The translations under genes were made by a program, and so were the position numbers. Of a stretch of 64,000 nucleotides of DNA, positions 1,983-58,066 are shown piece by piece (positions within the stretch are counted from its first letter, which is position 1; each line of letters opens with the position of its first letter). Where the stretch lies: NCBI GenBank assembly GCA_964616075.1, contig CAZTRA010000001.1, positions 49,599 to 113,598 of the forward strand, in the 5' to 3' direction. The notes beneath the pieces were generated by a model. It did no database searches, was not told the DNA's origin, and was given only the letters and a program-made list of their open reading frames with translations. This DNA is from an uncultured Candidatus Saccharibacteria bacterium (GTDB lineage Bacteria > Patescibacteriota > Minisyncoccia > Phycocordibacterales > DSPV01).

Positions 1983-2870
1983 TTACTGCGGGAGGAAGGC
2001 CGACGAGGAACCGCACTCGCCGTAGGTATGGTTTAACCAGCAGGCGTCGAACTTCACCAGGTCGGCGCCGAAGCTGAAGAGCGGCGTGGCCGCGAAGTTG
2101 CCAACGGCCTCCGGAGCGTATTCGTCACCGGCGCAGTTGATGTAGAGATCGTCGCAGTGCATCAGACGCTCAGGGTGAGTGAGCAACATGATCCCAACCG
2201 CGAAGGCGCCGAGTCCGAACTCGTTGGACACGAAGACCTCGCGAGCACGGCGAACGGAGCGTCCCCGATGACGGATGCCGAACTGGGCAGCCACCACGAG
2301 GATGTCGTGATCCTTCTGCTCGTCGCCGAGCGTCTGGAACATCTTCTCCGCCCGAGTCGACTGCTTGAGCCAATCGGGGCCGAGTTCGCCTTCGCACCTG
2401 TTCTTGAACTTGCCGTTGCGCGTCTCACTGATCTTCGCGAGCACCTTCTCCACGGCTCCACCGTAGGTCAAGGCGATCTTTTGCCACTTCGGGATGGCGA
2501 ACCACCCTTCGGCATTCGTCGGGACCGGCCGTTCGGCCAGCTTCTCGTCGGCGAAACCGACGCTCGGGAACAGTTGCCGCAGGATGTTCGTCTGCTCGGT
2601 GATGCCCTTCGGCTTGTAACCGGACAGGTATCTGTAGGTGGATTGCACTTCCTCGTTCTTGAACTTGTCGGAGACCGACAGGTCCTTCAGCGAGGTGATG
2701 GCGGCCGTGCGGATGGCCTCGGCGAATTCGTCGCCGTGTTCGATGACGCGTTGTGCGCCGAATTTGTCGAGGCCGAGCTCAGCGAGAACCTTCTCAATGG
2801 TGTCGGAACCGAACCGGTTGATCTGCTTGACCTGACCGGTCGTTGCTGCTGTCTGAGTAATCGCGTTCAT
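1983..2870 (-). CDS. hypothetical protein encoded on a ~60 % GC segment (foreign-composition insert)
   Basis: 295-aa ORF with diverse composition; RBS ggaga 7 nt upstream of ATG; terminator downstream; plus-strand ORF 2157..2897 is an Arg/Leu/Ala-rich antisense artefact. Confidence 0.6.
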   Translation of the reverse strand: MNAITQTAATTGQVKQINRFGSDTIEKVLAELGLDKFGAQRVIEHGDEFAEAIRTAAITSLKDLSVSDKFKNEEVQSTYRYLSGYKPKGITEQTNILRQLFPSVGFADEKLAERPVPTNAEGWFAIPKWQKIALTYGGAVEKVLAKISETRNGKFKNRCEGELGPDWLKQSTRAEKMFQTLGDEQKDHDILVVAAQFGIRHRGRSVRRAREVFVSNEFGLGAFAVGIMLLTHPERLMHCDDLYINCAGDEYAPEAVGNFAATPLFSFGADLVKFDACWLNHTYGECGSSSAFLPQ

Positions 2871-3075
2871 TGCGTTATCTCCTTTTGGATTTCCTGAACC
2901 GCTCAGGTAACGGATTGCCTCACCGCTTCCTTAATTCAAAGAGCGTTCTTTAGCAGTAGAACAAACTCATAGGGACTTGTCAAGTAGTAGGTTTCGTGCC
3001 TAATGCCCTAATTACAATCTGGAATTCCATCAATTTTGCGTGCTCCTTTCTCGTTGTTTTTTTGAATCGTCCCTA

Positions 3076-45065: not shown

Positions 45066-45746
45066 TTACATTACTGCGTAATAGAAGTCTTGTTGCCCAA
45101 GGGAGTCGGTCCAAATCACGTCTGGTTTATACCGTTCACCATCATGGTACATACCACGGACAACATCTCCGCCAGTGTTGTGTTTAAAGACGGTACCCTC
45201 GAAAAAAATATGAGGGGTATGACCCTCCATACGTTTCCATGAATCAGGGATGAGGTACGGATGAGCCAGCAGGTAGTCCAAAACCTGGGCCGGAAGAGGA
45301 CTGCTCGACTTCTTCTTATCTGTCGTCGGCACGCACCTGACAAGCCTACTGTTGATATATAGACCATCACCCTCGCGGTATATTATGCTCGAATGAGAGG
45401 AATACATACGAGAACTTTGAATAGCCCACCCTTCTGGCAAAAATGGATCTACCCCAAGATTGATATTGAACCGAACAGGCTCAATACGTCCGTATCCCCG
45501 CAACAAGCCCTTAAATTCCTTCAACCTGTCAACCGAAATCCCTGCTACCTCTGCCGAGCTAAAACCAGCATCAAAGAATGCATCAGCAAGATTTTCCGCT
45601 AATTGAAAAGCGAAGCTGCACTTGAAGCGGACTCGGTTAATATCCATGTCGGATGCTTGTGCTGTTGGTACGTCTTGTCTGTCCCCTTGTGCCTCTATAT
45701 TGCTCGGTATTTCATTGCTCGGTATTTCCAATGTATCAGTATTCAT
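45066..45746 (-). CDS. hypothetical protein (contains a 15-bp tandem duplication encoding EIPSN-EIPSN)
   Basis: ORF; no family recognised. Confidence 0.5.
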   Translation of the reverse strand: MNTDTLEIPSNEIPSNIEAQGDRQDVPTAQASDMDINRVRFKCSFAFQLAENLADAFFDAGFSSAEVAGISVDRLKEFKGLLRGYGRIEPVRFNINLGVDPFLPEGWAIQSSRMYSSHSSIIYREGDGLYINSRLVRCVPTTDKKKSSSPLPAQVLDYLLAHPYLIPDSWKRMEGHTPHIFFEGTVFKHNTGGDVVRGMYHDGERYKPDVIWTDSLGQQDFYYAVM

Positions 45747-46034: not shown

Positions 46035-46190
46035 AACCAGTTTCAATTTGAATTGTTCAGAAGAGCTACTATTTTAAGGCATGAAACTACTTCCACCGAA
46101 CTCACATTCAGCCGTCAGGACAAACCCTGCGGACTTACCAAAAACTTCTTTACACTCAATCGCTTTAGGTGCTTTCTAGCCACCCAGAAA
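46035..46190 (-). pseudogene. decayed fragment paralogous to the PhnB/VOC-family gene at 47544..48050
   Basis: about 150 nt of clear nucleotide similarity to 47770-47940; frame disrupted by stops. Confidence 0.45.
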
Positions 46191-47543: not shown

Positions 47544-48050
47544 CTATTGGCCGGCTTTTTTGATTTTTTCAAGATCAATTTTCTTCATTGGCATAAATGC
47601 CGTAGTGACTGCGTCTGCTTTTTGAGGATCTCGCATCATTTCATCCAGAATTCTTGGAACCACTTGCCACGTAACGCCAAATTTATCTTTGCACCATCCG
47701 CACTGTTCAGCTTCAGGCACCGCTGAAAGTTTCTCCCAGAAGAAATCAATTTCTTCTTGTGTTTCGCATTCAATGATAAACGAGGTAGACCCATTAAGTT
47801 TGAACTGCTCAAACGGGCCGCCGTTTAAAGCCATAAAGCTACTTCCATCGAGCTCACATTCAGCTGTCAGAACAGACCCCTCGGGCCTACCGGACACTTC
47901 TTTAAATTCAGGAGCTTTAGGCGCTCTCGTAATATCGCCAAGTGTCGCTTCATGATGACCAGGAGCTGATCTAAACGTATCTACATAATATCGTACTGCC
48001 TCTTCTCCATCATTATTAATAAACCAGATGCACGTAATTAATTTGCTCAT
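47544..48050 (-). CDS. PhnB-like / VOC (glyoxalase-fold) family protein
   Basis: MSKLITCIWFINNDGEEAV ... FGVTWQVVP pattern typical of the PhnB/3-demethylubiquinone methyltransferase-like DUF. Confidence 0.65.
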   Translation of the reverse strand: MSKLITCIWFINNDGEEAVRYYVDTFRSAPGHHEATLGDITRAPKAPEFKEVSGRPEGSVLTAECELDGSSFMALNGGPFEQFKLNGSTSFIIECETQEEIDFFWEKLSAVPEAEQCGWCKDKFGVTWQVVPRILDEMMRDPQKADAVTTAFMPMKKIDLEKIKKAGQ

Positions 48051-48188: not shown

Positions 48189-48836
48189 CTAATTTGTAAG
48201 TTTATTCCATATAAAATCAATATGAGGATTCTCTTTCCATAATTCTAAAATTTGATTTCTCAATTCTTGATGTTGAGGGTATCCAGTATCTTCAATACCT
48301 TCTGGTAATAAGTGATTACACTCTATATTAAGTAAAACAGTTAAAGCTTCTTTAATATCATTATATTTTTCTGGGCCAATTCTTTCTTGTTCATCTGCTC
48401 CAAACTTATACCAAGTATAGAAGTGCCACAATTCGTGCATGACTGTTTGCAATGCAGAGTTATTAGACAAGCAAACAAAAAATAAATTCTCTTTTAAGGA
48501 ATAAGGACATCTGTTATTGATTGTTAGATATACTGTAATATCTTCTAGTAGAGATACTCCAAAAACTTTCTCTGCAATATTTTGAAATTCATCCGAAATA
48601 TCTTCAAAATCTTTTTGATACTCTTTAATTCTTTTATTTATATCAATCTTGTTGTCTGCGATATATGTATCTATAAATTTAGAAGTAGACCTTTCATCAG
48701 GATTTTTTCCTGCAAAGTTAATTAGTTGTTCATATGCTTTTGTTGGATTGGGAGAGTTATTAGAGCTTTTACCTTTATTTAACAAACACCAAATATCCTC
48801 ATCTTTTTTGTAAGTAAAATTTAATTGCATATACAA
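48189..48836 (-). CDS. hypothetical HExxH-motif protein on a markedly AT-rich segment
   Basis: VMHELWHFY; GC visibly lower than neighbours. Confidence 0.45.
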   Translation of the reverse strand: MYMQLNFTYKKDEDIWCLLNKGKSSNNSPNPTKAYEQLINFAGKNPDERSTSKFIDTYIADNKIDINKRIKEYQKDFEDISDEFQNIAEKVFGVSLLEDITVYLTINNRCPYSLKENLFFVCLSNNSALQTVMHELWHFYTWYKFGADEQERIGPEKYNDIKEALTVLLNIECNHLLPEGIEDTGYPQHQELRNQILELWKENPHIDFIWNKLTN

Positions 48837-49019: not shown

Positions 49020-49439
49020 CTAATTCTTGATGGCACCGACCACTACTTGAGTTGCCCTTCTGATGGCATTGTAGGTAGCGTTGCGTTTGGCGGCATTGAT
49101 AAGCGACATACCAACCTTTGCGGGCAGGTACATGTCATGCCTAACCAACGTGGCGAGCCAGTGGACGGGGCCAACTGAAGTTCCACCATAGGAACAGCCG
49201 TCACGTATAACCGGCGTGTACTTTCCTTGGTCGTCTATTTCATCTTCAAGAACAACAAACGGATATGCTTTGTTCATGTCCTCCGGGCTCAAACATTGTT
49301 TCCCCTTGAGCTCCAGAATGTTATTCACTGCCTCCACCACCTCCGTTGCCCTGTGCCAACCCCAGGTGCTTTCTCTCGGGTAATCCGGGATGTAGAACCT
49401 GTAGATTGGAGGCATTACCATCTTAGACTGATGCGTCAT
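49020..49439 (-). CDS. hypothetical protein
   Basis: ORF with own terminator. Confidence 0.5.
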   Translation of the reverse strand: MTHQSKMVMPPIYRFYIPDYPRESTWGWHRATEVVEAVNNILELKGKQCLSPEDMNKAYPFVVLEDEIDDQGKYTPVIRDGCSYGGTSVGPVHWLATLVRHDMYLPAKVGMSLINAAKRNATYNAIRRATQVVVGAIKN

Positions 49440-49516
49440 TTTCTCTCCTTACCGCCTACGTGGCGATTGTGTAGGAAGTCCTGTTGTGCATAATGACTTG
49501 GCCACAGTGGTTTCGT

Positions 49517-49565
49517 CATAGCAGAGAAAAGCCAAGGGTTGGCTCCTCTCTGCCATGACGAATAT
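49517..49565. other. compound hairpin (13-bp outer stem with 1 mismatch enclosing an inner 6-bp stem-loop)
   Basis: cgtcatagcagag aaa agccaa ggg ttggct cct ctctgccatgacg. Confidence 0.4.
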
Positions 49566-49627
49566 ATCAAGGTTCCAATCCGATATAATAATAACATACT
49601 ATAAGGTATGTTGTCAACTGCTAGCTC

Positions 49628-49695
49628 CGGTGGATTACTAAGGATGTTTATCACAAAAAGCATCACAAGAGTACCAAGACCAAATACAAACTACT
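49628..49695 (+). repeat. left copy of about 70-bp imperfect direct repeat bounding the island (lies in a recombinase-like 3' fragment ...WITKDVYHKKH...)
   Basis: cggtggattactaaggatgtttatCacaaaaagcatcaCaagagtaccaagac... matches 57660-57756. Confidence 0.7.
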
Positions 49696-49748
49696 GAAAA
49701 CAGAAAACCGCCATCTCACGACAGTGGGTAACTGTGTTGAGATGGTGG

Positions 49749-49898
49749 TCAAGGATGGGTTGTAAGTATGATCCCACAAACGCCTCCAATCAAGGCAATC
49801 AGACCGAGAACGGTGTTGGTAATAGGGGTTTTTGATTTCACTGACCCTCCTACCATACAAGCTCCGATCAATATGCAAGCTAAGGCGACATATTTCAT
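49749..49898 (-). CDS. candidate 49-aa small hydrophobic protein (MKYVALACILIGACMVGGSVKS...) at the island edge
   Basis: ORF found by reading the minus strand; no good SD; speculative. Confidence 0.2.
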   Translation of the reverse strand: MKYVALACILIGACMVGGSVKSKTPITNTVLGLIALIGGVCGIILTTHP

Positions 49899-50086
49899 TA
49901 GTATAATTTGGTGTATTGTTTTGGCACACCTGGGTTCCTCCTGAAACCACTAGCCGTGTAAAAGAACATGTTAACATACTAACACGCTATATATATTTAG
50001 TCAAATTTGCTCCACATCGTGAACGAAGTTATAACCTATTTTAAGACCACGGATCAATACCATTACATCCCGAGTTTTAACTAAAA

Positions 50087-52903
50087 CTACTCAGAGATAC
50101 GGTATTTCAACTGGCGCTGCTTAAATGCCTCAGACCCTCCCTCTAAGACTTTTATTGCATGGGTGTATATTTCAGGATTTTCAATAGACCCAGCATTGTA
50201 AGAAATCTCCCCATCTTTTCTATTAGCAATGATTATTTGCTCAGAATCACTATTAATAACCACATTACCGTTATTTGAGGCAAGAATAACCTGTCTGTAT
50301 TGCTTTGCTTGTCTAATAGCCTTCACAAGTTCATCCATAATAAATTCGTTATCAAGGTGATCGTCGTGAGAATCAATAATAATAGGTTTATCTCCCTGGG
50401 CAAGATAGATTTTCATAAGTACTGTAGCCTTTTGTCCGAGTGAGAGTTTCTGTAATTGAGTACCCTTATATTTAACAGTGGGCGCAACGGAATAATAATC
50501 TCCGTAAACAAGATCATAAAATGACGTAGTGGAAATACCTTGTGAATTTTTTATCTTGTCTTTGTAGTCTGAAACAACTGAGTTGTTTTGTTTGATAATT
50601 TCACCTATTTTTTTATCATCTCCATTTACATATTCCTGATTAATTGAAAACAGACTTGCAAAAATTGACTCCTCGTCTTTTGAATGAGAAACTTTTACTT
50701 TTCTCTGATCGAGAATATCTTCCGCACCTTGTTCAAACTTTGATTGGTTGTAATTAATTTTTGCGCTAAAACTTAAATCACTAAGCACGTCATCTTTGTT
50801 AGTTGAAAAGACTGAGATAATTTCCTCATACTTTTTCTTAAGTAGAAATGTGTCATTCAATAATTTTGAGTAAAGGTCCTCTCTGTTTTTCAGTTCTTTT
50901 TTAAGAGTTTCCTGATCCTTGTTTAAGTCGGCTTCTTTCTTTTCAAGTTTTACTAAGTCCTGAGCAAGTTCTTTTTGTTTATCCAATAATTTAGCGTGAT
51001 TTTTTACACCAACCTCTAAGGACTCAATATCTTTTTGAGCCTTTTCTAGTTCTTTAACTATTTTTGTGAGTTCTGTTTGTATTTCTGTGCTAATACTTCC
51101 AAGGTCATCCTTACTACTATAAGCAAGTGCGGATAACTGTTTTTTATTACCATGTTTCTTTAATAAAGCATTGATTGAATCTACTGTGGTATTGAATACC
51201 ACTAGATCATTCGATACAAAATCCGCAGCATCCCTTAAATAACCCTGAATACTTAACAACTCATCCTTCTTTTCTTTGAGCCTAGTAACTATCCCTTGTT
51301 TACTTTGTGCTACTAGTTTGTTTTCAAGAGTTTGTGCTTTTTCTGATTCCACAACTCTATTAGAAATATCCTTAATTTCTGCCTCAAGTTTATTTTTATC
51401 TGCGAGAACTGATTTTGTATTGGTTGCACTCGTAGATTCTTCAAGTTTTGCTATCAGTGCATTTTTTTGTTTAATACTCTTTTTACTAAGAGTTATCTCG
51501 CTTTGTAGTTGCTCAAACTCAAAACTTTTCTCTGTATCTTTTATTACAGGACTATCAAAAATAAGGCTATTAATGTAGTCATCCAAATCTGAGTCATCGC
51601 TAATATATTCCTCAAGTTCACCTTGGGCTATGTAGACAACTTCACTATGTTCAAAAAAATTTCCATCAGTTAGTTTTTTTGAAAAAGTTGTTCCGTCTTT
51701 GAACGTGAGTTCAACCTCGATGTCTGGGGTCTGATCAGATGTTATTCTCCTTACAAAAGAATTTGGGTCTTTAATGTTGGACCTATCTTTGTAACAATTT
51801 GCTAGTAAATCAACAAAAGCAGTTTTTCCGCTCCCTTTTCCTCCAGTAACAGATACTAGTGCGGGATTTAGTTCAATTTCAGTTGCATTTATTTTTAACT
51901 CACTCCCAATCACAGAATCACTAATTTTGATTTTCTGAATAGTATAATTACTTTTTACTGGAGTAGGGTCTTTTTCTTGAATTTTAACTCGGTCAGCAGG
52001 CTCATATGATAATTGTTTTAGTCCATCAAAAGTTGGGTCCGATTTAATCCAACAAAAGCGCATATCGCAATTAAGTGGTGTCTTTGTGCAATCATGACTT
52101 GTCTTGCCTCGATTTGCACAAGGTTTACAGATACTTTCAAGATCATGTGAATCAGATCCATGAATACACGCCTTAAGGCTTCCATACTTCCTTTTGATTT
52201 CGTCGACTGAGTCAGTGCCATTACCTAAAAAATAATCTCTATCTGATGGATTTCCCGATAGAATGAAATGAGACAACCTGTAAATCTCTTCGCGAGTAGC
52301 AGCCATACTGGAATGCTGGATTCCCGAATTACCATCATTACTGTTATTTGAGACAGCCAAAACTACGTTTTCTGCTAGACGTTTATCTTGTAGTATTTCT
52401 CTTAACTGATTGTGGCTGGTTTTGAATTGTTCAACACCTGCCTTATATGCAGCAACATCGTCTAAGGTTTGATCATTTTTGTAAGCCTTACCCAGGCTTA
52501 TCAAATCAGACTTAATACATTTGTATTTTTGTGCTTTGTAATTGTATTCCAAACTTGAGAATAATTTTGATTCCAACTCATTAACAATTTCAGGGTTTAT
52601 TATTAAATGAATGTTGATAGGTTTTTCAGTTGATGTAACTGGTAATATCCTAAGTTCGACATTTGGAACAATTAAATCAAAATTAGTGAGTTTTCCTTCG
52701 GTAATCACTTTTTGATATCCCTCAATTGAAAAGTAGTCAGTTATTCCAATTACGGACACACCTGTAATTGTTTTTAATTTTGCAAAAAAGTTGGTCCATT
52801 TTTCTTCCGTGGTCGCACCCTCAAACAAAGTATTATTTAATACTGATGCTGGACTGTGTACGTGTAGGTCCCATTTTCTCCAAATTGATCCTTGTGTCGA
52901 CAT
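50087..52903 (-). CDS. PHP-domain phosphoesterase fused to SbcC/Rad50-like coiled-coil ABC ATPase (938 aa); fourth gene of the defence operon
   Basis: N-terminal WRKWDLHVHSPAS PHP motif I; Walker A VTGGKGSGKTAFVDLL; about 300-aa K/E/L-rich coiled-coil; ABC signature-like LSLGQKATVL; Walker B / D-loop PIIIDSHDDHLD. Confidence 0.75.
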   Translation of the reverse strand: MSTQGSIWRKWDLHVHSPASVLNNTLFEGATTEEKWTNFFAKLKTITGVSVIGITDYFSIEGYQKVITEGKLTNFDLIVPNVELRILPVTSTEKPINIHLIINPEIVNELESKLFSSLEYNYKAQKYKCIKSDLISLGKAYKNDQTLDDVAAYKAGVEQFKTSHNQLREILQDKRLAENVVLAVSNNSNDGNSGIQHSSMAATREEIYRLSHFILSGNPSDRDYFLGNGTDSVDEIKRKYGSLKACIHGSDSHDLESICKPCANRGKTSHDCTKTPLNCDMRFCWIKSDPTFDGLKQLSYEPADRVKIQEKDPTPVKSNYTIQKIKISDSVIGSELKINATEIELNPALVSVTGGKGSGKTAFVDLLANCYKDRSNIKDPNSFVRRITSDQTPDIEVELTFKDGTTFSKKLTDGNFFEHSEVVYIAQGELEEYISDDSDLDDYINSLIFDSPVIKDTEKSFEFEQLQSEITLSKKSIKQKNALIAKLEESTSATNTKSVLADKNKLEAEIKDISNRVVESEKAQTLENKLVAQSKQGIVTRLKEKKDELLSIQGYLRDAADFVSNDLVVFNTTVDSINALLKKHGNKKQLSALAYSSKDDLGSISTEIQTELTKIVKELEKAQKDIESLEVGVKNHAKLLDKQKELAQDLVKLEKKEADLNKDQETLKKELKNREDLYSKLLNDTFLLKKKYEEIISVFSTNKDDVLSDLSFSAKINYNQSKFEQGAEDILDQRKVKVSHSKDEESIFASLFSINQEYVNGDDKKIGEIIKQNNSVVSDYKDKIKNSQGISTTSFYDLVYGDYYSVAPTVKYKGTQLQKLSLGQKATVLMKIYLAQGDKPIIIDSHDDHLDNEFIMDELVKAIRQAKQYRQVILASNNGNVVINSDSEQIIIANRKDGEISYNAGSIENPEIYTHAIKVLEGGSEAFKQRQLKYRISE

Positions 52904-52906
52904 AAA

Positions 52907-55588
52907 TTAATTCGATAGTTTACTTGCAAATGTTTGATAACTATCGACCTCTTGGTAGTTAACATGAATCACTTCAAAGTGTTTCTTTGCTGATTCTATT
53001 TTTGCTTTTTCGGTTGGGCGTAAGTTGTTTACGTCGCCCTTTGTTTCAACAACAAAGTAAACCTTTTCACTTTCATTGCCTTTAAGATCACGCTTTGCAG
53101 TAACAATAGCCCAGTCAGGATTGTAGCCACCAACAGGTGTCTCAACTTTGTACCAGTTAGGCATTTTAATAAACAATTTAATACGCTCGTCTTGCTCGAG
53201 GTTCAATGCAAAGTTCTTTTCAACGTCAGAGTCGTGAACAATAGCATCATAAATGGACCGAGTAACTGCCAAAGTAGAGTCCTTATAACTTTCAAGTGCT
53301 TTGAATTCTTCTGCCTTGTAAGCATCAGAAATAACCTCATAACTTACTTGCTCAACGTAAGTCTTTACGAGTTCTTGTTTTATGATTTTACTAGCCTCAA
53401 CTACAAAGCGATCAGGGTTGTTAAAGAAAGCCTCCCAGTTATTTGCCTCAAGAACAATTTCAGCGATTGTAGAGCGAGTGAGTCGGGTATGTGCCTTGAT
53501 TTCAGAAATACAATCCATCGTTCGAGTTTGTGTTGCCCCCGTGTCGCCTGATTCAGCCCCCAGGACGAGAGATTTGATACCTTTCGCAGAGATATCGATA
53601 CCTGCACGCTCAACACGAATGTGGGGCTTTTGTAGCCGAATTTCAGATATAGCCTTTGCGGAGTTGGTTATAAGCGACTCGGTGTTTACTTTTACGAGGT
53701 AACGAGTCTTCTTTGAAATGCGGCCCCACAACTCTTTGAAGTTCTCGTCTTTTTGGAATCCAGGCTTGAGTGCGATCTTACTTCGCTGTTTTGCATTGTG
53801 AGGTAATTGAGGTGTTTTGTAGATACCATCCTCTTGGAATTCTGCTTGTAGGCTTGCAACGTAGTCGGCATAACTTATGTTTGCAACCACTGAAAGCAAA
53901 TTGATTCGTCTATCAAAAATACGATCACCTTCTTGATTAACACAAAGACGCATACCACGACCAATCTCTTGGCGCTTTTTCATTGAGGAAGTTGTCTCAT
54001 TCAAAGTACAGATATTAAACACGTTCGGATTGTCCCAACCTTCACGGAGTGCAGAGTGAGAGAAAATAAATTCAACAGGTTCAGAGAAAGACAAAAGACG
54101 CTCCTTATCTTTCATAATAAGTTCATAAGCCTCGTCATTCTTTTCAATAGCAGAGTCTTGCTCAACAAAACTACCGTCTTTCTTTTTTGCAAAGTATCCA
54201 GTGTGAAGTGAGTCGATAGAATTTTGCCCCAGGGCAAATTCATTTTTAACTCTTGATAACTCCTCGGTAAATATCTTGCGTATCATTCCATCCGCACCAG
54301 CATAATTTGCAACCTTATCGATAAAGAAAAGGCTCAAGACTTTAATATCAAAATCCTTGTGCTTTTGTTTTTTCTCAATGTGAAGTCTGATAGTCTCAGA
54401 TATTTGTCTACGCCAAATATCCTCCTTGTTTTGATTAATAGCAGTTCCTCGAGAAAGAATAAAACCATTGGTAAAGTGAACCTTGCCCTCAGCGCCAAAC
54501 TCAGGTGCGTCCGCATCGATATTTGAAACCACATAGCCGTCATAGGCTTTGTTACCCGTAAGTTCAGATAGGTTGTCGTTCTTTTTTACATTGGTTGCTT
54601 TTACCTTTCTATTTCCATCGCTATCCATAAAAGCGAGTTCAACTTTTGCTTTAATACCACTGGCAGTCTTTGCTGGTTTTGCCTCAACAAAAACCATGTG
54701 AGGGACCGAAGTACCACTATCGTCATCAGTTACTGAAAAGACTTCTATTTTTTTAACAAGCCCAAGTTGGTAAGCATCGTAAGGTGTGAGTTGGTGTACA
54801 AGGTTGTATGGATTCTTGTGAGTAGCAGAATAGCGGAGGCGGAATAGTGCATTGAAATTCTCAAGCGCTTTTCTTGTAGCATCACCTTCCATATTTTGTG
54901 GCTCGTCGAGGATAAGAATAGGGTTTGTCTTTTTAATAAACTCAATTGGTTGTTCACCCTGCATTTGATCACGAGCACCATAAAGAACGTTAGCGTCTTT
55001 GTTAAAAGCACCAACGGTCATAACCATGATATTTATCACGCTACTGTCGGCAAAGTGTCGAACCTGGGTGATATTTTTTGATTTGTATTCGTAAAATCTG
55101 AAAGGAGTGTTTGCATACAATTCTTTGAAGTGGTCCTCGGTGATTTTCAGGGTCTTAATAACACCCTCGCGAATAGCAACAGACGGGACTAAAATAATAA
55201 ACTTTTTCCAGCCGTACTTTTGATTGAGTTCAAAAATGGTACGCAAGTAAACATACGTTTTACCTGTACCCGTTTCCATTTCAACTGAGATGTCTTTCCA
55301 TCCTACATACTCGCCATTAAAAGTATAATCAGGGTCGTCATAAGTAACTCCTGGTTCGTTGAATTTAATACTGCTTTTTATTTCCTCTAAGTTGTTTTGA
55401 GATTTAATTCTTTTGATATTTTCTTTTACTTCCTCAGGGGACAAAGTAAGTACATTTGGATAGATACCAAACAATCCCAAACCAGCCACAGTCTGTGCTG
55501 TAGTTTTTTCTTGTCCCTCAAAACAATCAACCACTGAGTTGACTGCTTGAAGTTGGTATTCTTGATTTGGATCAAACTTAAATTTCAT
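52907..55588 (-). CDS. res: Type III restriction enzyme Res-like subunit (SF2 helicase plus C-terminal PD..ExK endonuclease)
   Basis: helicase motif I TGTGKTYVY, motif II LILDEPQNM; C-terminal YNPDWAIV ... FVVETKG. Confidence 0.85.
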   Translation of the reverse strand: MKFKFDPNQEYQLQAVNSVVDCFEGQEKTTAQTVAGLGLFGIYPNVLTLSPEEVKENIKRIKSQNNLEEIKSSIKFNEPGVTYDDPDYTFNGEYVGWKDISVEMETGTGKTYVYLRTIFELNQKYGWKKFIILVPSVAIREGVIKTLKITEDHFKELYANTPFRFYEYKSKNITQVRHFADSSVINIMVMTVGAFNKDANVLYGARDQMQGEQPIEFIKKTNPILILDEPQNMEGDATRKALENFNALFRLRYSATHKNPYNLVHQLTPYDAYQLGLVKKIEVFSVTDDDSGTSVPHMVFVEAKPAKTASGIKAKVELAFMDSDGNRKVKATNVKKNDNLSELTGNKAYDGYVVSNIDADAPEFGAEGKVHFTNGFILSRGTAINQNKEDIWRRQISETIRLHIEKKQKHKDFDIKVLSLFFIDKVANYAGADGMIRKIFTEELSRVKNEFALGQNSIDSLHTGYFAKKKDGSFVEQDSAIEKNDEAYELIMKDKERLLSFSEPVEFIFSHSALREGWDNPNVFNICTLNETTSSMKKRQEIGRGMRLCVNQEGDRIFDRRINLLSVVANISYADYVASLQAEFQEDGIYKTPQLPHNAKQRSKIALKPGFQKDENFKELWGRISKKTRYLVKVNTESLITNSAKAISEIRLQKPHIRVERAGIDISAKGIKSLVLGAESGDTGATQTRTMDCISEIKAHTRLTRSTIAEIVLEANNWEAFFNNPDRFVVEASKIIKQELVKTYVEQVSYEVISDAYKAEEFKALESYKDSTLAVTRSIYDAIVHDSDVEKNFALNLEQDERIKLFIKMPNWYKVETPVGGYNPDWAIVTAKRDLKGNESEKVYFVVETKGDVNNLRPTEKAKIESAKKHFEVIHVNYQEVDSYQTFASKLSN

Positions 55589-55593
55589 AATTG

Positions 55594-57378
55594 TTAAATT
55601 GTTTTCAAATCAAGGTTAAGGGACAGATTGGCGGCAGTAGTGTCGTCGAGACTACTCTCGAGACAAATAAATAATTTACCTTTGTGAGACTTATCAGTAA
55701 GTTCTTTTACAGTTTCAGACGCAAGTTTATTTTCAAGACAAACAAGTAATTGCTGTTCGCCGTCGGATACTTTGTGAACTTTATTTTTGCCGATAGTAAT
55801 TGTTTCGACTTTACTATTTAGCGACAAGCCTTCTTTAACGATATTTTCATAAACAACATTCATATCGTCCTCTTTATCAAAAAGTTGGCTTTGCTTTGCT
55901 TTATGTAAGTAAGCAACAAATGCTTGCTGGTTTTCTTCGGATGATTTCTCGGGATTAAATACAAAAGTATTTTCAGGATAGTTTGATTCAGAGAGTGTAA
56001 ACACTTTGAATCCCGCATCAATAGGCTGAGGATTCTCGCCATAACCTTTTATTACACGTCGAATACGCTCTTTTGCAATATCAGCAATAGTTTTGTATCC
56101 AGCATTAAATCCGTCGGATCCTTCTTCGAGTTTTTCAGGAAGTTGCACACAAATAAATTTTCTATTGCCACCATCTTCTTGATTTTGTTTGAAAACAGCA
56201 TGAGCAGTTGTACCAGAGCCCGCAAAGAAATCTAAGATAATATCTTCTTGATTTGTTGATATTTTTAGCATTTCTTGAATATAAGGAATTGGTTTCGGGG
56301 TATCGAAAATTATTCCACCGAAAATAGATTTAATCTCATCGGATGCATTTGCGGCGTTTGAGGTATTATCCCAAATTGTCTCAGGAATTTTTCCCTTATT
56401 TTCGTCGATAAACAACTTACGGTAGAGATTATCTCCTCTAACAATAAGTTTATTTTCATTGTCTAATTTTTGTAAATTTTCTTTACTGAACAACCAAAGT
56501 CTTTCCTTAAAGTATTGTCCTTCTTTATTTGTAAAATCATATTTAACACCACCTTGAGTTCCTCTAGCCCAAACGGCAAGCATTCTGTAATCGCCTCTAG
56601 GATCGTTGTCGGGGTTCTTGTAAGCCTCCTTTGTCCCTTCATCAAGATCAAGATAATTTGTATTGAATTGTTGCAGGTCTTTAGCAAAGACCAATAAGTA
56701 CTCGTGTGATTTACTAAACCATCTCGCAGAATTATCACGCCCACGTTTTCTTTTCCAAATAACATTTGCAACAAAATTTTCTTCACCAAAAATCTCATCA
56801 AGTACTAGTCTTAAATTATGAACCTCATTATCGTCGATAGATACAAAAATAGCCCCATCTTCACGAAGTAAATTCCAAGCCAATTTAAGACGAGGATACA
56901 TCATAGAAAGCCAGTCGCTATGGTAACGCCCATTGGTTTCTTTGTTTGTGGTAGTACTTTCACCAGCCTCAGTTTTTTGACCTGTTTGCTTTAAGTAGTT
57001 ATCAAGAGGGGCGCTAAAATTATCGTTGTATACAAAATCATGACCCGTGTTATAAGGCGGATCAATGTAAATCATTTTCACTTTCTCAAAGTAAGCCTTT
57101 TGTAAAAGTTTCAAAACTTCTAAGTTATCGCCCTCAATAAAAAGGTTTTCGGATTCATCCCATTTAATGCTTTGCTTAGGTTCAGGATTGAGAGTTAGTT
57201 TGCTAGGGACCAACACACTTTTAATAGCGTTACTTTTACCAGCCCAAGTAAAAGAAAACTTATCAGACAAATTGACTGCCTGTGAACTTAAATCCTCTAT
57301 GTATTTTTGTAAGTTCAAAGACTTCTCAAAGAGTGAGTCATCCGATGTTAAATTAATTTTTGTGGGTTTTTTATTCAT
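55594..57378 (-). CDS. mod: Type III Mod-like N6-adenine DNA methyltransferase (beta class: motif IV before motif I)
   Basis: IYIDPPYNTG (motif IV DPPY) at about residue 95-105; FFAGSGTTAHAV (motif I) at about residue 380. Confidence 0.9.
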   Translation of the reverse strand: MNKKPTKINLTSDDSLFEKSLNLQKYIEDLSSQAVNLSDKFSFTWAGKSNAIKSVLVPSKLTLNPEPKQSIKWDESENLFIEGDNLEVLKLLQKAYFEKVKMIYIDPPYNTGHDFVYNDNFSAPLDNYLKQTGQKTEAGESTTTNKETNGRYHSDWLSMMYPRLKLAWNLLREDGAIFVSIDDNEVHNLRLVLDEIFGEENFVANVIWKRKRGRDNSARWFSKSHEYLLVFAKDLQQFNTNYLDLDEGTKEAYKNPDNDPRGDYRMLAVWARGTQGGVKYDFTNKEGQYFKERLWLFSKENLQKLDNENKLIVRGDNLYRKLFIDENKGKIPETIWDNTSNAANASDEIKSIFGGIIFDTPKPIPYIQEMLKISTNQEDIILDFFAGSGTTAHAVFKQNQEDGGNRKFICVQLPEKLEEGSDGFNAGYKTIADIAKERIRRVIKGYGENPQPIDAGFKVFTLSESNYPENTFVFNPEKSSEENQQAFVAYLHKAKQSQLFDKEDDMNVVYENIVKEGLSLNSKVETITIGKNKVHKVSDGEQQLLVCLENKLASETVKELTDKSHKGKLFICLESSLDDTTAANLSLNLDLKTI

Positions 57379-57380
57379 AA

Positions 57381-57578
57381 TTATTTCTTCTTTTTCTTAG
57401 GAGGCTTTACATTAGAGGATTGCTCAAGGAACTGTCGCAGGTCGTCCTCGCTTATTCGCCAATATCCGACCTTTGAGGCTTTTAATTTGCCGTCGTGAAT
57501 GTAGCGAAAGATAGACCTTTCACTGACACGTAACGCTTCGGCTACTTCTTTAACGCTGAGAAATTTTGTGTTAGTCAT
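57381..57578 (-). CDS. excisionase-family helix-turn-helix DNA-binding protein (65 aa, Lys-rich tail); first gene of the operon, possible controller
   Basis: LSVKEVAEALRVSERSIFRYIHDGKLKASKVG.WRI matches the excisionase/MerR-like HTH pattern. Confidence 0.8.
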   Translation of the reverse strand: MTNTKFLSVKEVAEALRVSERSIFRYIHDGKLKASKVGYWRISEDDLRQFLEQSSNVKPPKKKKK

Positions 57579-57598: not shown

Positions 57599-57627
57599 AT
57601 TTTACTCCTTCAAAAACCCTGTGTCAA
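57599..57627 (-). promoter_or_regulatory. sigma70-like promoter TTGACA-17-TAAAAT with RBS AAGGAG for the HTH-mod-res-ATPase operon
   Basis: minus-strand ttgaca cagggtttttgaaggag taaaat gtaaaaaggagaaaataatt ATG. Confidence 0.55.
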
Positions 57628-57659: not shown

Positions 57660-57756
57660 CGGTGGATTACTAAGGATGTTTATGACAAAAAGCATCAATT
57701 ACTAAGGATGTTTATGACAAAAAGCATCAAGAGTATCAGGACAAAATACAGGTACT
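57660..57756 (+). repeat. right copy of the island-bounding direct repeat, containing a perfect 32-bp tandem duplication (57667-57698 / 57699-57730)
   Basis: ttactaaggatgtttatgacaaaaagcatcaa x2; matches 49628-49695. Confidence 0.8.
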
Positions 57757-57990: not shown

Positions 57991-58066
57991 TGGCTCCGCG
58001 GCCTGGGCTCGAACCAGGGACCCTCCCGTTAACAGCGGGACGCTCTACCGACTGAGCTACCGCGGA
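57991..58066 (-). tRNA. tRNA-Asn (anticodon GUU), CCA encoded
   Basis: manual cloverleaf: acceptor TCCGCGG/CCGCGGA, anticodon stem TCCCG/CGGGA with loop CTGTTAA, T-arm CCTGG TTCGAGC CCAGG, 3' GCCA. Confidence 0.85.

Follow-up and report, generated by a model that had tools for sequence, protein, structure and literature searches.

The anti-phage system Ppl was reportedly named by Gao et al. in Science in 2020. It consists of a single gene whose product carries an ATPase and a PHP domain in one protein and protects against T7 (PMC11482910), and a 2026 review describes it as a 3′-5′ ssDNA exonuclease that is inhibited by NTPs and senses 3′-OH ends (PMC12904381). Another described protein of this kind is TrlF of Photorhabdus laumondii, encoded in the trlR-trlF-trlG locus, from which the TrlF family takes its name. 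The Photorhabdus TRL paper is the only literature found under the name TrlF, and in it TrlF has no phenotype of its own (PMC7554251), which counts against reading its relatives as defence proteins.

We analysed a TrlF-family gene in the window, a stretch of DNA of 64,000 nucleotides. The first-pass annotation had placed an ORF at 50087-52903, and these coordinates are exact; it gave no strand, which is minus, and it overlooked this strand as well as the R-M operon context, the non-canonical ATP site and the lack of a Rad50-type zinc hook. Along the protein, the PHP domain is followed by a Cys/His cluster, the N-lobe of an ABC head, a coiled coil and the C-lobe of the head:

50087..52903, minus strand: TrlF-family ORF, ATG-to-stop, 938 aa plus stop
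52139..52903, minus strand: PHP phosphoesterase domain, residues about 1-255
52049..52129, minus strand: Cys/His cluster CKPCANRGKTSHDCTKTPLNCDMRFCW that separates PHP domain and ATPase, residues 259-285
51533..51946, minus strand: N-terminal lobe of the ABC ATPase head, residues about 320-457
51821-51844, minus strand: Walker A GGKGSGKT, in the N-terminal lobe
51617-51634, minus strand: Q-loop YIAQGE, in the N-terminal lobe
50801..51532, minus strand: antiparallel coiled-coil arm, residues 458-701
50090..50800, minus strand: C-terminal lobe of the ABC head, residues 702-938
50429-50446, minus strand: signature LSLGQK, in the C-terminal lobe
50351-50383, minus strand: Walker B/D-loop IIIDSHDDHLD, in the C-terminal lobe
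50264-50278, minus strand: SNNGN replacing the H-loop, in the C-terminal lobe

All the motifs quoted in the first pass are found in the translation (WDLHVHSPAS at residues 11-20, GGKGSGKT at 354-361, LSLGQKATVL at 820-829 and IIIDSHDDHLD at 841-851). They do not arise by chance, since the key residues are invariant across 40 homologues of 42-83% identity, in the PHP part (W11, D12, H14, H16, E83, H99, H197, D251 and H253) as in the ATPase part (K360, T361, Q427, S821-K825, D844 and D851). A Pfam scan of the protein itself gave no family at E ≤ 0.01 and a PHROGs search gave zero matches. PDB sequence searches, with either the protein or the 40-sequence profile, returned nothing below E 0.02, and a close relative with a solved structure is therefore absent. 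An AF2 model of the 938-aa protein has a pLDDT of 84.3.

The top 15 Foldseek matches of the N-terminal region are all Pol III PHP domains, which, together with the invariant ligands, bears out the earlier assignment of a PHP phosphoesterase. The region combines the distorted (beta/alpha)7 barrel fold with the HxH, E, H, (H) and DxH ligands of the PHP superfamily, carried here by DLHVHS (H14 and H16), ITDY (D56), PNVE (E83), NIH (H99), H197 and GSDSH (D251 and H253). Among the 40 homologues, Pfam matched PHP_C weakly in 24 and PHP in 4. The His of the canonical ITDH motif is replaced by Tyr57, and the metal site may consequently differ from the canonical one. The nearest structural neighbours include the RNA-acting RNase AM and the lesion-specific EndoQ, so that any substrate or polarity assigned to the predicted nuclease is tentative.

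The SMC/Rad50-like character of the ATPase was also recognized correctly: Foldseek matches of the head comprise MukB, JetC, SMC, Rad50, RecN and RecF (E 6e-9 to 1e-4), with the LmuB and AriA heads also among them, and the Walker A, Q-loop and signature are invariant. In the AF2 model, the coiled coil is formed by two antiparallel arms, residues 458-583 and 598-701, that meet at an apex at ~584-597. Its heptad character, proposed in the first pass, is real, with a hydrophobic periodicity of 3.5 residues (z = 7.3) that none of 500 shuffles reached and that has no comparable counterpart in the PHP and C-terminal regions under the same test, but the arm spans ~244 residues instead of the ~300 proposed. 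The apex carries no CxxC zinc hook, and residues 560-620 are devoid of Cys.

The window protein belongs to the TrlF family over its full length. It scores 501.3 bits with the NCBIfam model NF045780 (cutoff 350), residues 5-935 aligning with positions 2-944 of the 944 in the model, and hhalign against the Pfam-PHP-positive TrlF clade gives a probability of 99.9 and an E of 1.8e-33 over 832 columns. In public data, the family amounts to 8,416 clusters (50% identity, E ≤ 1e-3) and has roughly 2,200 strong members. Relatives are patchily distributed over more than 12 phyla, and one family member is encoded by a P2-like Yersinia phage, in the variable region between gpA (replication) and gpQ (portal). 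The PHP-ABC fusion, initially described as unusual, is thus already catalogued and not new, as the architecture both of this curated family and of an anti-phage system, Ppl (PMC11482910). The Ppl model NF042955 matches residues 278-930 with 93.8 bits, below its cutoff of 1000, and the PADLOC Ppl model matches only the C-terminal region, with 75.5 bits; the C-terminal lobe is also the part that matches the Ppl and Spaf_1101 models most strongly. Judged by these scores, Ppl is a distant relative that belongs to a separate family.

From its motifs, the window protein is a member of a derived TrlF subclade in which a Cys/His cluster follows the PHP domain. The ATP site of the window protein reads DSHDD at Walker B and SNN at the H-loop, where the majority clade has DQPE[DE] and THN; the majority motifs are typical of TrlF and lie outside the curated membership criterion. 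The position following the Walker B Asp D844 is thus S845 instead of the catalytic Glu, and the H-loop is S876-N877, with His replaced by Asn. Both residue pairs are invariant in the subclade, and 112-115 of 119 close homologues carry DSHDD together with SNN. The best PDB match of the TrlF profile is the 1l2t chain of MJ0796 (31.7 bits), whose Walker B reads LADQP; a second MJ0796 chain, 1f3o, scores 28.5 bits. The ATP site of the window protein looks degenerate by comparison of these motifs, although D847 could yet act as the catalytic base. The Cys/His cluster is present in 103 of the 119 close homologues and in none of 118 members of the DQPE clade. Four of its residues (C262, H270, C272 and C279) are invariant in the 40-homologue alignment, and six of the eight Cys of the protein lie within residues 246-284, consistent with a putative Zn-binding insert. 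The DSHDD subclade is a minority of TrlF, with ~14-16 of 117 full-length representatives.

The TrlF gene is the last of a four-gene operon, HTH-Mod-Res-TrlF, that forms a low-GC island of ~8 kb bracketed by upstream and downstream copies of a 38-nt direct repeat:

52907..55588, minus strand: type III Res, 893 aa (Pfam ResIII, DEAD and RE_endonuc; PADLOC REase_III, 779 bits)
55594..57378, minus strand: type III Mod methyltransferase, 594 aa (Pfam N6_N4_Mtase; PADLOC MTase_III, 568 bits)
57381..57578, minus strand: small HTH protein, 65 aa (excisionase / HTH_17 / Mad1-like)
57599..57627, minus strand: sigma-70-like promoter match TTGACA-17-TAAAAT (11 of 12 positions, consensus match only)
57660..57729, no strand: direct repeat on the upstream side, a 38-nt copy and a partial copy that overlaps it
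49628..49665, no strand: downstream copy of the direct repeat, 38 nt (37 of 38 identical, similarity reaching ~66 nt)
57991..58066, minus strand: tRNA-Asn(GTT), immediately outside the cassette

The Res and TrlF genes are joined by TAA-TTT-ATG, that is, by a 3-nt spacer between the Res stop and the TrlF start. The first gene, encoding the 65-aa HTH protein, is a probable controller, and the promoter listed is the best sigma-70-like match upstream of the operon. The tRNA-Asn(GTT) gene is a likely integration hotspot. At another locus, L042, the same four-gene cassette is found within different flanks, its TrlF being 83% identical, and the DNA common to both starts at the inner edge of the upstream repeat, at 57663. 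The L042 cassette lacks the 38-nt repeat, which may consequently be a feature of the insertion site or of local regulation and not of the cassette. Two ORFs downstream of TrlF, of 104 aa (49663-49977) and 76 aa (49436-49666), were rejected as genes: they are uncalled in the public record, overlap the repeat and promoter region, and have neither family matches nor homologues in the related loci beyond the public record of the window itself (L001). No Mre11/SbcD metallophosphatase gene was matched among the neighbours, which are the HTH, Mod and Res genes and ORFs without family match.

Taken as a PHP domain joined to an SMC/Rad50-like ABC head with a coiled coil, the window protein is most likely a nuclease of the Ppl kind, acting against phages and foreign DNA; it is probably a defence nuclease. 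The single-chain, end-processing nuclease-ATPase proposed in the first pass is a plausible description, by analogy with the review account of Ppl. In the mechanism that we propose, two chains would pair through their ABC heads and sandwich the nucleotide between the Walker A of one and the LSLGQK of the other. With Ser standing in for the catalytic Glu (DSHDD) and Asn for the H-loop His (SNNGN), this site would probably bind NTP and hydrolyse it slowly or not at all, and could thus serve as a sensor of nucleotide levels or a conformational latch, not as a motor. The PHP nuclease would be kept off while NTP is bound; a drop in nucleotide pools in infection, or the appearance of free DNA ends, would release it to degrade nucleic acid from the end. 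With trlF presumably linked translationally to the type III Res on a mobile cassette, the ends that it meets plausibly include those made by restriction.

The neighbourhoods of relatives bear on how tight this coupling to restriction may be. In the subclade of the window protein, type I, II or III R-M genes were linked to TrlF in ~10 of the ~29 loci inspected (a raw count), and the neighbours found comprise R-M systems of these three types, Wadjet, an OLD-family nuclease, Mrr-STAND or serine recombinases. At L021, TrlF lies between hsdM and hsdS (4-nt overlap and 9-nt gap), with a similar arrangement at L007; in Brocadia, it follows hsdR-hsdM-hsdS after a gap of 24 nt; at L004 and L028, it precedes a type II MTase and REase, and at P0042 the order is TrlF-Mod-Mod-Res. 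A tblastn search of the 29 loci with the window Res and Mod had retrieved L008 alone and suggested no R-M linkage; this result was overturned when the neighbouring genes were annotated with Pfam and PADLOC, which showed linkage to R-M systems of different types. At six Chloroflexota loci, the genes around TrlF have housekeeping functions (copper ATPase, amidase, UvrA) and not defence functions.

One alternative is that TrlF does not defend on its own but always serves the restriction system, as an obligate accessory or guard, either finishing the DNA cut by Res in place of a RecBCD-type degradation or being triggered by anti-restriction inhibition of R-M. PrrC/EcoprrI and PARIS are triggered in this way, when anti-restriction proteins inhibit the R-M complex. 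This reading overlaps with the preferred one and differs from it in holding the coupling to R-M essential. The R-M-embedded loci just described, the 3-nt spacer between Res and TrlF, and the maintenance of the cassette as a unit at L042 speak in its favour. About two-thirds of the loci nevertheless have no adjacent R-M system, the three DQPE-clade chromosomal loci inspected carry TrlF as a stand-alone gene, the partners come from three R-M types that differ in mechanism, a diversity that speaks against a specific protein-protein interaction, and defence islands commonly carry R-M genes anyway. We consider an essential coupling rather unlikely.

A second alternative concerns the substrate. The PHP domain might act on RNA or small nucleotides instead of DNA, as an RNase AM-like 5′-3′ exoribonuclease or a pAp / cyclic-nucleotide phosphatase, making TrlF an effector that degrades RNA or a signal. 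The DQPE-clade profile matches two chains of RNase AM, 7ug9 and 9etk (E ~4e-4), and the Yersinia phage homologue weakly matches RNase RNM and 3′,5′-bisphosphate phosphatase models. All the top structural matches, however, have the SMC-like head and coiled coil as a DNA-associated module, TrlF is linked to DNA-cutting restriction systems, and Ppl is reported as an ssDNA exonuclease (PMC12904381), so that we regard this possibility as distinctly unlikely. Housekeeping repair of double-strand breaks, with TrlF as a single-chain SbcCD/Mre11-Rad50 analogue that processes ends for recombination, is the reading implied by the comparison drawn in the first-pass annotation. It finds some basis in the SMC/Rad50-like head with its coiled coil, in the proofreading and end-processing exonuclease role of PHP domains in Pol III, PolC and PolX, and in the synteny near UvrA conserved in Chloroflexota, but the low-GC mobile cassette, the patchy phylum distribution, the defence-island neighbours, the simultaneous lack of zinc hook, catalytic Glu and H-loop His, and the anti-phage role of the related Ppl make it very improbable. 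Finally, a module for growth arrest in the manner of the Photorhabdus Temperature Restricting Locus, unconnected with phage defence, is hardly credible despite the shared family name and an operon with a small HTH gene in first place and a helicase-domain Res, since the Photorhabdus suppressor mutations all fall in trlG and none in trlF (PMC7554251), no RecG-like trlG gene was annotated by Pfam or NCBIfam beside TrlF in the window, and the helicase there is a genuine type III Res accompanied by its Mod.

The Ppl-kind defence nuclease therefore remains our preferred reading; the distance from Ppl, the ITDY motif, the RNase AM and EndoQ neighbours, D847 and the six Chloroflexota housekeeping loci count against it. 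The fusion itself, belonging to a catalogued family, changes nothing, and the value of the locus lies in a clean, well-delimited example of HTH-Mod-Res-TrlF, whose nearest named homologues suggest that it probably comes from a CPR (candidate phyla radiation) bacterium. Two testable ideas follow: PHP-ABC nucleases of the TrlF/Ppl kind may be wired recurrently into R-M operons of all three classes, and the loss of Glu and His with the gain of the Cys/His cluster in the subclade would fit a nucleotide-sensing latch, not a motor. If confirmed, they would broaden the emerging view of how bacterial immunity senses nucleotide pools and DNA ends, and would add to the backup effectors carried on restriction systems. 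PrrC and RloC are ABC-ATPase and nuclease modules embedded in or linked to restriction loci. More speculatively, and with considerable doubt, the DSHDD/SNN/Cys-cluster subclade as a whole could be a restriction-coupled nuclease inside type I-III R-M operons, with the ABC site as a non-hydrolysing sensor, that destroys restriction-made ends or is set off by a block of restriction. Such a role would represent a general second stage of restriction, so far undescribed, and the destruction of ends would be of consequence in CPR bacteria with their small genomes, provided that RecBCD/AddAB is missing from them.

Compared with known systems, the window protein resembles Rad50-Mre11 and SbcC-SbcD in its ABC head, which contains an inserted antiparallel coiled coil and is tied to a metal-dependent nuclease. 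It differs in that this nuclease is a PHP domain fused in cis, whereas Mre11 and SbcD are separate and calcineurin-like, in its arm of ~110-125 residues per strand without a CxxC zinc hook, and in lacking the canonical Walker B Glu and H-loop His. With OLD/GajA, PARIS AriA-AriB, Septu/retron PtuA-PtuB, Lamassu LmuB-LmuA, PrrC and RloC, it has in common the pairing of an SMC-like ATPase sensor with a nuclease effector; the effectors there are TOPRIM, HNH, Cap4 or anticodon nucleases, and here an N-terminal PHP domain on the same chain. At the sequence level, no relation to these modules was found beyond the generic ABC head, and the C-terminal TOPRIM nuclease domain characteristic of OLD and Gabija GajA was not matched in the protein by Pfam, NCBIfam or PADLOC. 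The PHP nucleases Pol III alpha/PolC, RNase AM (YciV/TrpH) and archaeal EndoQ are stand-alone or polymerase-attached, none of them with an ABC head, and the window protein differs from them further by the Tyr in place of one canonical His ligand (ITDH). In the Photorhabdus TRL, the partner is the trlG helicase, whereas a type III R-M operon surrounds TrlF in the window. Ppl likewise combines PHP and an ABC-type NTPase on one polypeptide, with homology over the ATPase and coiled-coil part, but it is a single-gene system and the window gene is operon-linked to R-M. The TrlF majority shares the domain order (PHP, ABC head, coiled coil), with ITDH, DQPE[DE] and THN where the window protein has ITDY, DSHDD and SNN and the added Cys/His cluster.

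The interval 50087-52903 is a single open reading frame running from ATG to stop over 938 codons on the minus strand, a strand that the first-pass annotation had not named; the plus strand translates into nothing but stops. The motifs on which the first-pass annotation had based its reading are all found in the protein: WDLHVHSPAS (residues 11-20), GGKGSGKT (354-361), LSLGQKATVL (820-829) and IIIDSHDDHLD (841-851). Residue conservation was scored in an alignment of 40 homologues (42-83% identity), in which the putative PHP ligands W11, D12, H14, H16, E83, H99, H197, D251 and H253 are invariant, as are the ATPase positions (Walker A G354-T361, Q427, signature S821-K825, D844 and D851).

We then modeled the whole protein with AlphaFold2 from this alignment (pLDDT 84.3, pTM 0.65). 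The model displays, in order, an N-terminal alpha/beta domain, the N-lobe of an ABC head, helical arms and the C-lobe of the head, the arms being long, antiparallel (458-583 and 598-701) and linked by a short apex. Foldseek against the PDB retrieved the heads of MukB, JetC, SMC, Rad50, RecN, RecF, LmuB and AriA (E 6e-9 to 1e-4), and with a separate model of residues 1-320 (pLDDT 85.6, pTM 0.87) the top 15 matches were all PHP domains of Pol III alpha and nothing else (best E 1.9e-5); from these matches, the initial assignment of a PHP domain and an SMC/Rad50-like ABC ATPase is correct in both parts. The coiled-coil arm proposed alongside them is shorter than the claimed ~300 residues, at 244 (458-701), but its heptad-type periodicity is real: the 3.5-residue hydrophobic period over 458-701 stands 7.3 sd above 500 shuffles, and the same test gave no such signal in the flanking globular parts.

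A Pfam scan of the protein itself returned no family. In NCBIfam its full length matches NF045780, 'TrlF family AAA-like ATPase', scoring 501 bits where the cutoff is 350; two sibling models match weakly, Spaf_1101 at 98 bits and Ppl at 94 bits, far from the Ppl cutoff of 1000. The family is a large one: a word-indexed search retrieved 2,359 proteins (E<=1e-5), and an exhaustive profile search gave 8,416 clusters (50% identity) at E<=1e-3, 6,463 at 1e-10 and 2,211 at 1e-30. Members occur in Patescibacteria, Elusimicrobiota, Planctomycetota, Chloroflexota, Bacteroidota, Acidobacteriota, Proteobacteria and other phyla, the closest named homologues being from CPR/Patescibacteria (Pacebacteria, Microgenomates). 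The P2-like Yersinia phage vB_YenM_42.18 carries a representative of a second clade, a gene of 872 aa (L031:1751-4369). NCBIfam assigns the product of this gene to TrlF as well (465 bits), and its precomputed Pfam matches are to PHP, SMC_N and AAA_21; a profile-profile alignment of the two clades spans 832 columns, with probability 99.9 and E 1.8e-33. In the phage, gpA (replication) and gpQ (portal) flank the variable region that holds the gene, a region known as a defence hotspot. The gene carries the annotation 'chromosome partition protein Smc', which is likely wrong. The fusion had been called unusual, a view that does not hold, because a PHP domain in cis with an SMC-like ATPase is already catalogued, both in this large curated family and in Ppl, a one-gene anti-phage system that combines an ATPase with a PHP domain (PMC11482910).

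We compared motif states between 119 close relatives of the window protein and 118 Yersinia-type proteins.

Motif states in the two clades (window relatives; Yersinia-type)
Walker B region: DSHDDHLD in 106/119 (112 with near variants); DQPED[NH]LD in 116/118
H-loop position: SNNGN in 115/119; THN in 116/118
PHP motif: ITDY in 103/119; ITDH in 115/118
Cys/His cluster C-x5-9-H-x-C-x5-8-C-x3-5-CW: 103/119; 0/118

Among the 117 full-length representatives nearest to the window profile, DQPE[DE] with TH is the majority state, and DSHDD with SN occurs together with the Cys cluster in only 14-16. The window protein thus belongs to a derived minority subclade; it is a new member of a known family. Canonical ABC ATPases carry the catalytic Glu directly after the Walker B Asp; this position is Gln in most of the TrlF family and Ser in the window protein. 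The best PDB match of the family profile is the 1l2t chain of MJ0796 (Walker B LADQP, 31.7 bits; the 1f3o chain of this protein scores 28.5). The 1l2t chain is the E171Q mutant, which is deficient in hydrolysis and has served to trap dimers with ATP bound. Degenerate ABC sites are known, as in CFTR NBD1, with LLDSP and no H-loop His. Judging from these residues, the head probably binds nucleotide with little hydrolysis and would act as a sensor or latch, although D847, which aligns to the DQPE Glu, might serve as a base. Six of the eight cysteines lie within residues 246-284, which suggests a putative structural Zn site there.

The TrlF gene is the last of a same-strand array:

57381-57578, minus strand, HTH gene, excisionase/Mad1-like
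55594-57378, minus strand, type III Mod
52907-55588, minus strand, type III Res
50087-52903, minus strand, TrlF

Only TTT separates the Res stop from the TrlF start. The operon (50-58 kb) forms a low-GC island, at 0.34-0.42 against ~0.43-0.46 around it, with a minimum of 0.31 at 48-49 kb just past it and AT skew reversed over the block; a tRNA-Asn(GTT) (57991-58066, minus strand) lies directly outside, and no integrase gene is found inside the cassette. A 38-nt direct repeat, CGGTGGATTACTAAGGATGTTTAT[C/G]ACAAAAAGCATCA, brackets exactly HTH-Mod-Res-TrlF, with copies at 57660-57697 upstream and 49628-49665 downstream that are 37/38 identical, with similarity out to ~66 nt, and an overlapping partial third copy upstream (57692-57729). 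The region's two best promoter-like matches (57627-57599 and 49617-49588) each lie ~10-35 nt downstream of a copy. Candidate roles for the repeats are insertion scars of the att type or operators bound by the HTH protein. Comparison with the metagenomic locus L042, whose TrlF is 83% identical, shows that the four genes move as one unit: L042 keeps their order, and its DNA is similar to the window between 57663, where the upstream repeat has its inner edge, and 50017, with an unrelated upstream flank and no copy of the 38-nt repeat.

Several other features were observed in the window. The 650-nt gap past TrlF contains a 49-aa ORF, MKYVALACILIGACMVGGSVKSKTPITNTVLGLIALIGGVCGIILTTHP (49749-49898, minus strand), which looks like a small protein of two hydrophobic helices. 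A 139-aa ORF (49020-49439, minus strand; local GC ~0.46, unlike the cassette) comes with a separate promoter-like site and a terminator (48999-48973), both strong; Pfam, NCBIfam and PHROG gave no match and PADLOC only a weak one to the SspE N-terminus (E 1.8e-4), and no counterpart of the ORF was found beside TrlF at other loci. A 215-aa ORF (48189-48836, minus strand), within the lowest-GC kilobase (0.31), matched no family in any library searched, and its HELWH could be a zinc-metallopeptidase HExxH. Also downstream of the cassette are a 135-nt direct repeat (46042-46176 and 47794-47928, 75% identity, 1.75 kb apart) and, within a 226-aa ORF (45066-45746), a perfect 15-nt tandem duplication, ATTGCTCGGTATTTC twice, at 45699-45728. 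Far from it, GC rises to 0.587 in one kilobase (2001-3000, ~0.43 elsewhere) that holds overlapping opposite-strand ORFs, 1983-2870 (minus) and 2157-2897 (plus).

We surveyed the neighbourhoods of ~29 loci of the window's subclade.

Genes beside TrlF
Type III R-M: the window and L001, its public record GCA_013565695.1, contig JACCDT011346198.1; L008; the P0042 locus as TrlF-Mod-Mod-Res
Type I R-M, hsdR-hsdM-TrlF-hsdS: L007 and L021
Type I R-M, hsdR-hsdMS-orf-TrlF: L002
Type I R-M, hsdR-hsdM-hsdS-TrlF: Brocadia L038
hsdS-TrlF kept without hsdR-hsdM: a second Brocadia assembly, L039
Type II R-M, TrlF-MTase-REase: L004 and L028
Other defence or mobility genes: Wadjet JetA/JetC, OLD-TOPRIM protein, PD-(D/E)XK, 1,520-aa SF1 helicase, Mrr-STAND, serine recombinases

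Linkage to R-M is recurrent, at about one third of the loci as a raw share, and not universal. In two Patescibacteria loci (L021:5650-11033 and L007:8466-14255), TrlF separates hsdM from hsdS; in L021 it overlaps its upstream neighbour by 4 nt and is followed after 9 nt by the next gene, so that it lies inside the restriction operon and not beside it.

The best-supported reading is that the window TrlF is probably a Ppl-like defence nuclease. The ABC heads would dimerise head-to-head around bound NTP and keep the PHP nuclease inactive; a fall in nucleotide pools or the appearance of DNA ends would release the nuclease, which would then degrade DNA exonucleolytically, and the ends met in the window operon could come from the cuts of the type III enzyme. 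Anatomy, family placement and context are directly established for this protein; nuclease activity, polarity, regulation and coupling we infer. An obligate R-M accessory or guard, which overlaps with this reading, is a less likely alternative given the restriction operons described here; against it, TrlF looks stand-alone in the three loci inspected from the Yersinia-type clade. That the PHP domain acts on RNA or a nucleotide is unlikely. Six Chloroflexota loci have common housekeeping-like neighbours instead, and a housekeeping role in double-strand-break repair is more doubtful still. The family is named after the Photorhabdus Temperature Restricting Locus, trlR-trlF-trlG, where the annotation of TrlF was histidinol phosphatase and trlF yielded no mutations (PMC7554251); a TRL-like growth arrest module is hardly credible here.

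The features that most merit further work are the degenerate ATP site, the Cys cluster and the recurrence of TrlF within restriction operons. The protein differs from Rad50 in having no zinc hook, since no cysteine is found in its sequence at the coiled-coil apex. Ppl is described in a 2026 review as a 3'-5' ssDNA exonuclease, inhibited by NTPs on both its PHP and NTPase domains and activated by the 3'-OH ends that phage generates (PMC12904381), and a poorly hydrolysing sensor or latch in the window TrlF would fit the NTP inhibition reported there.
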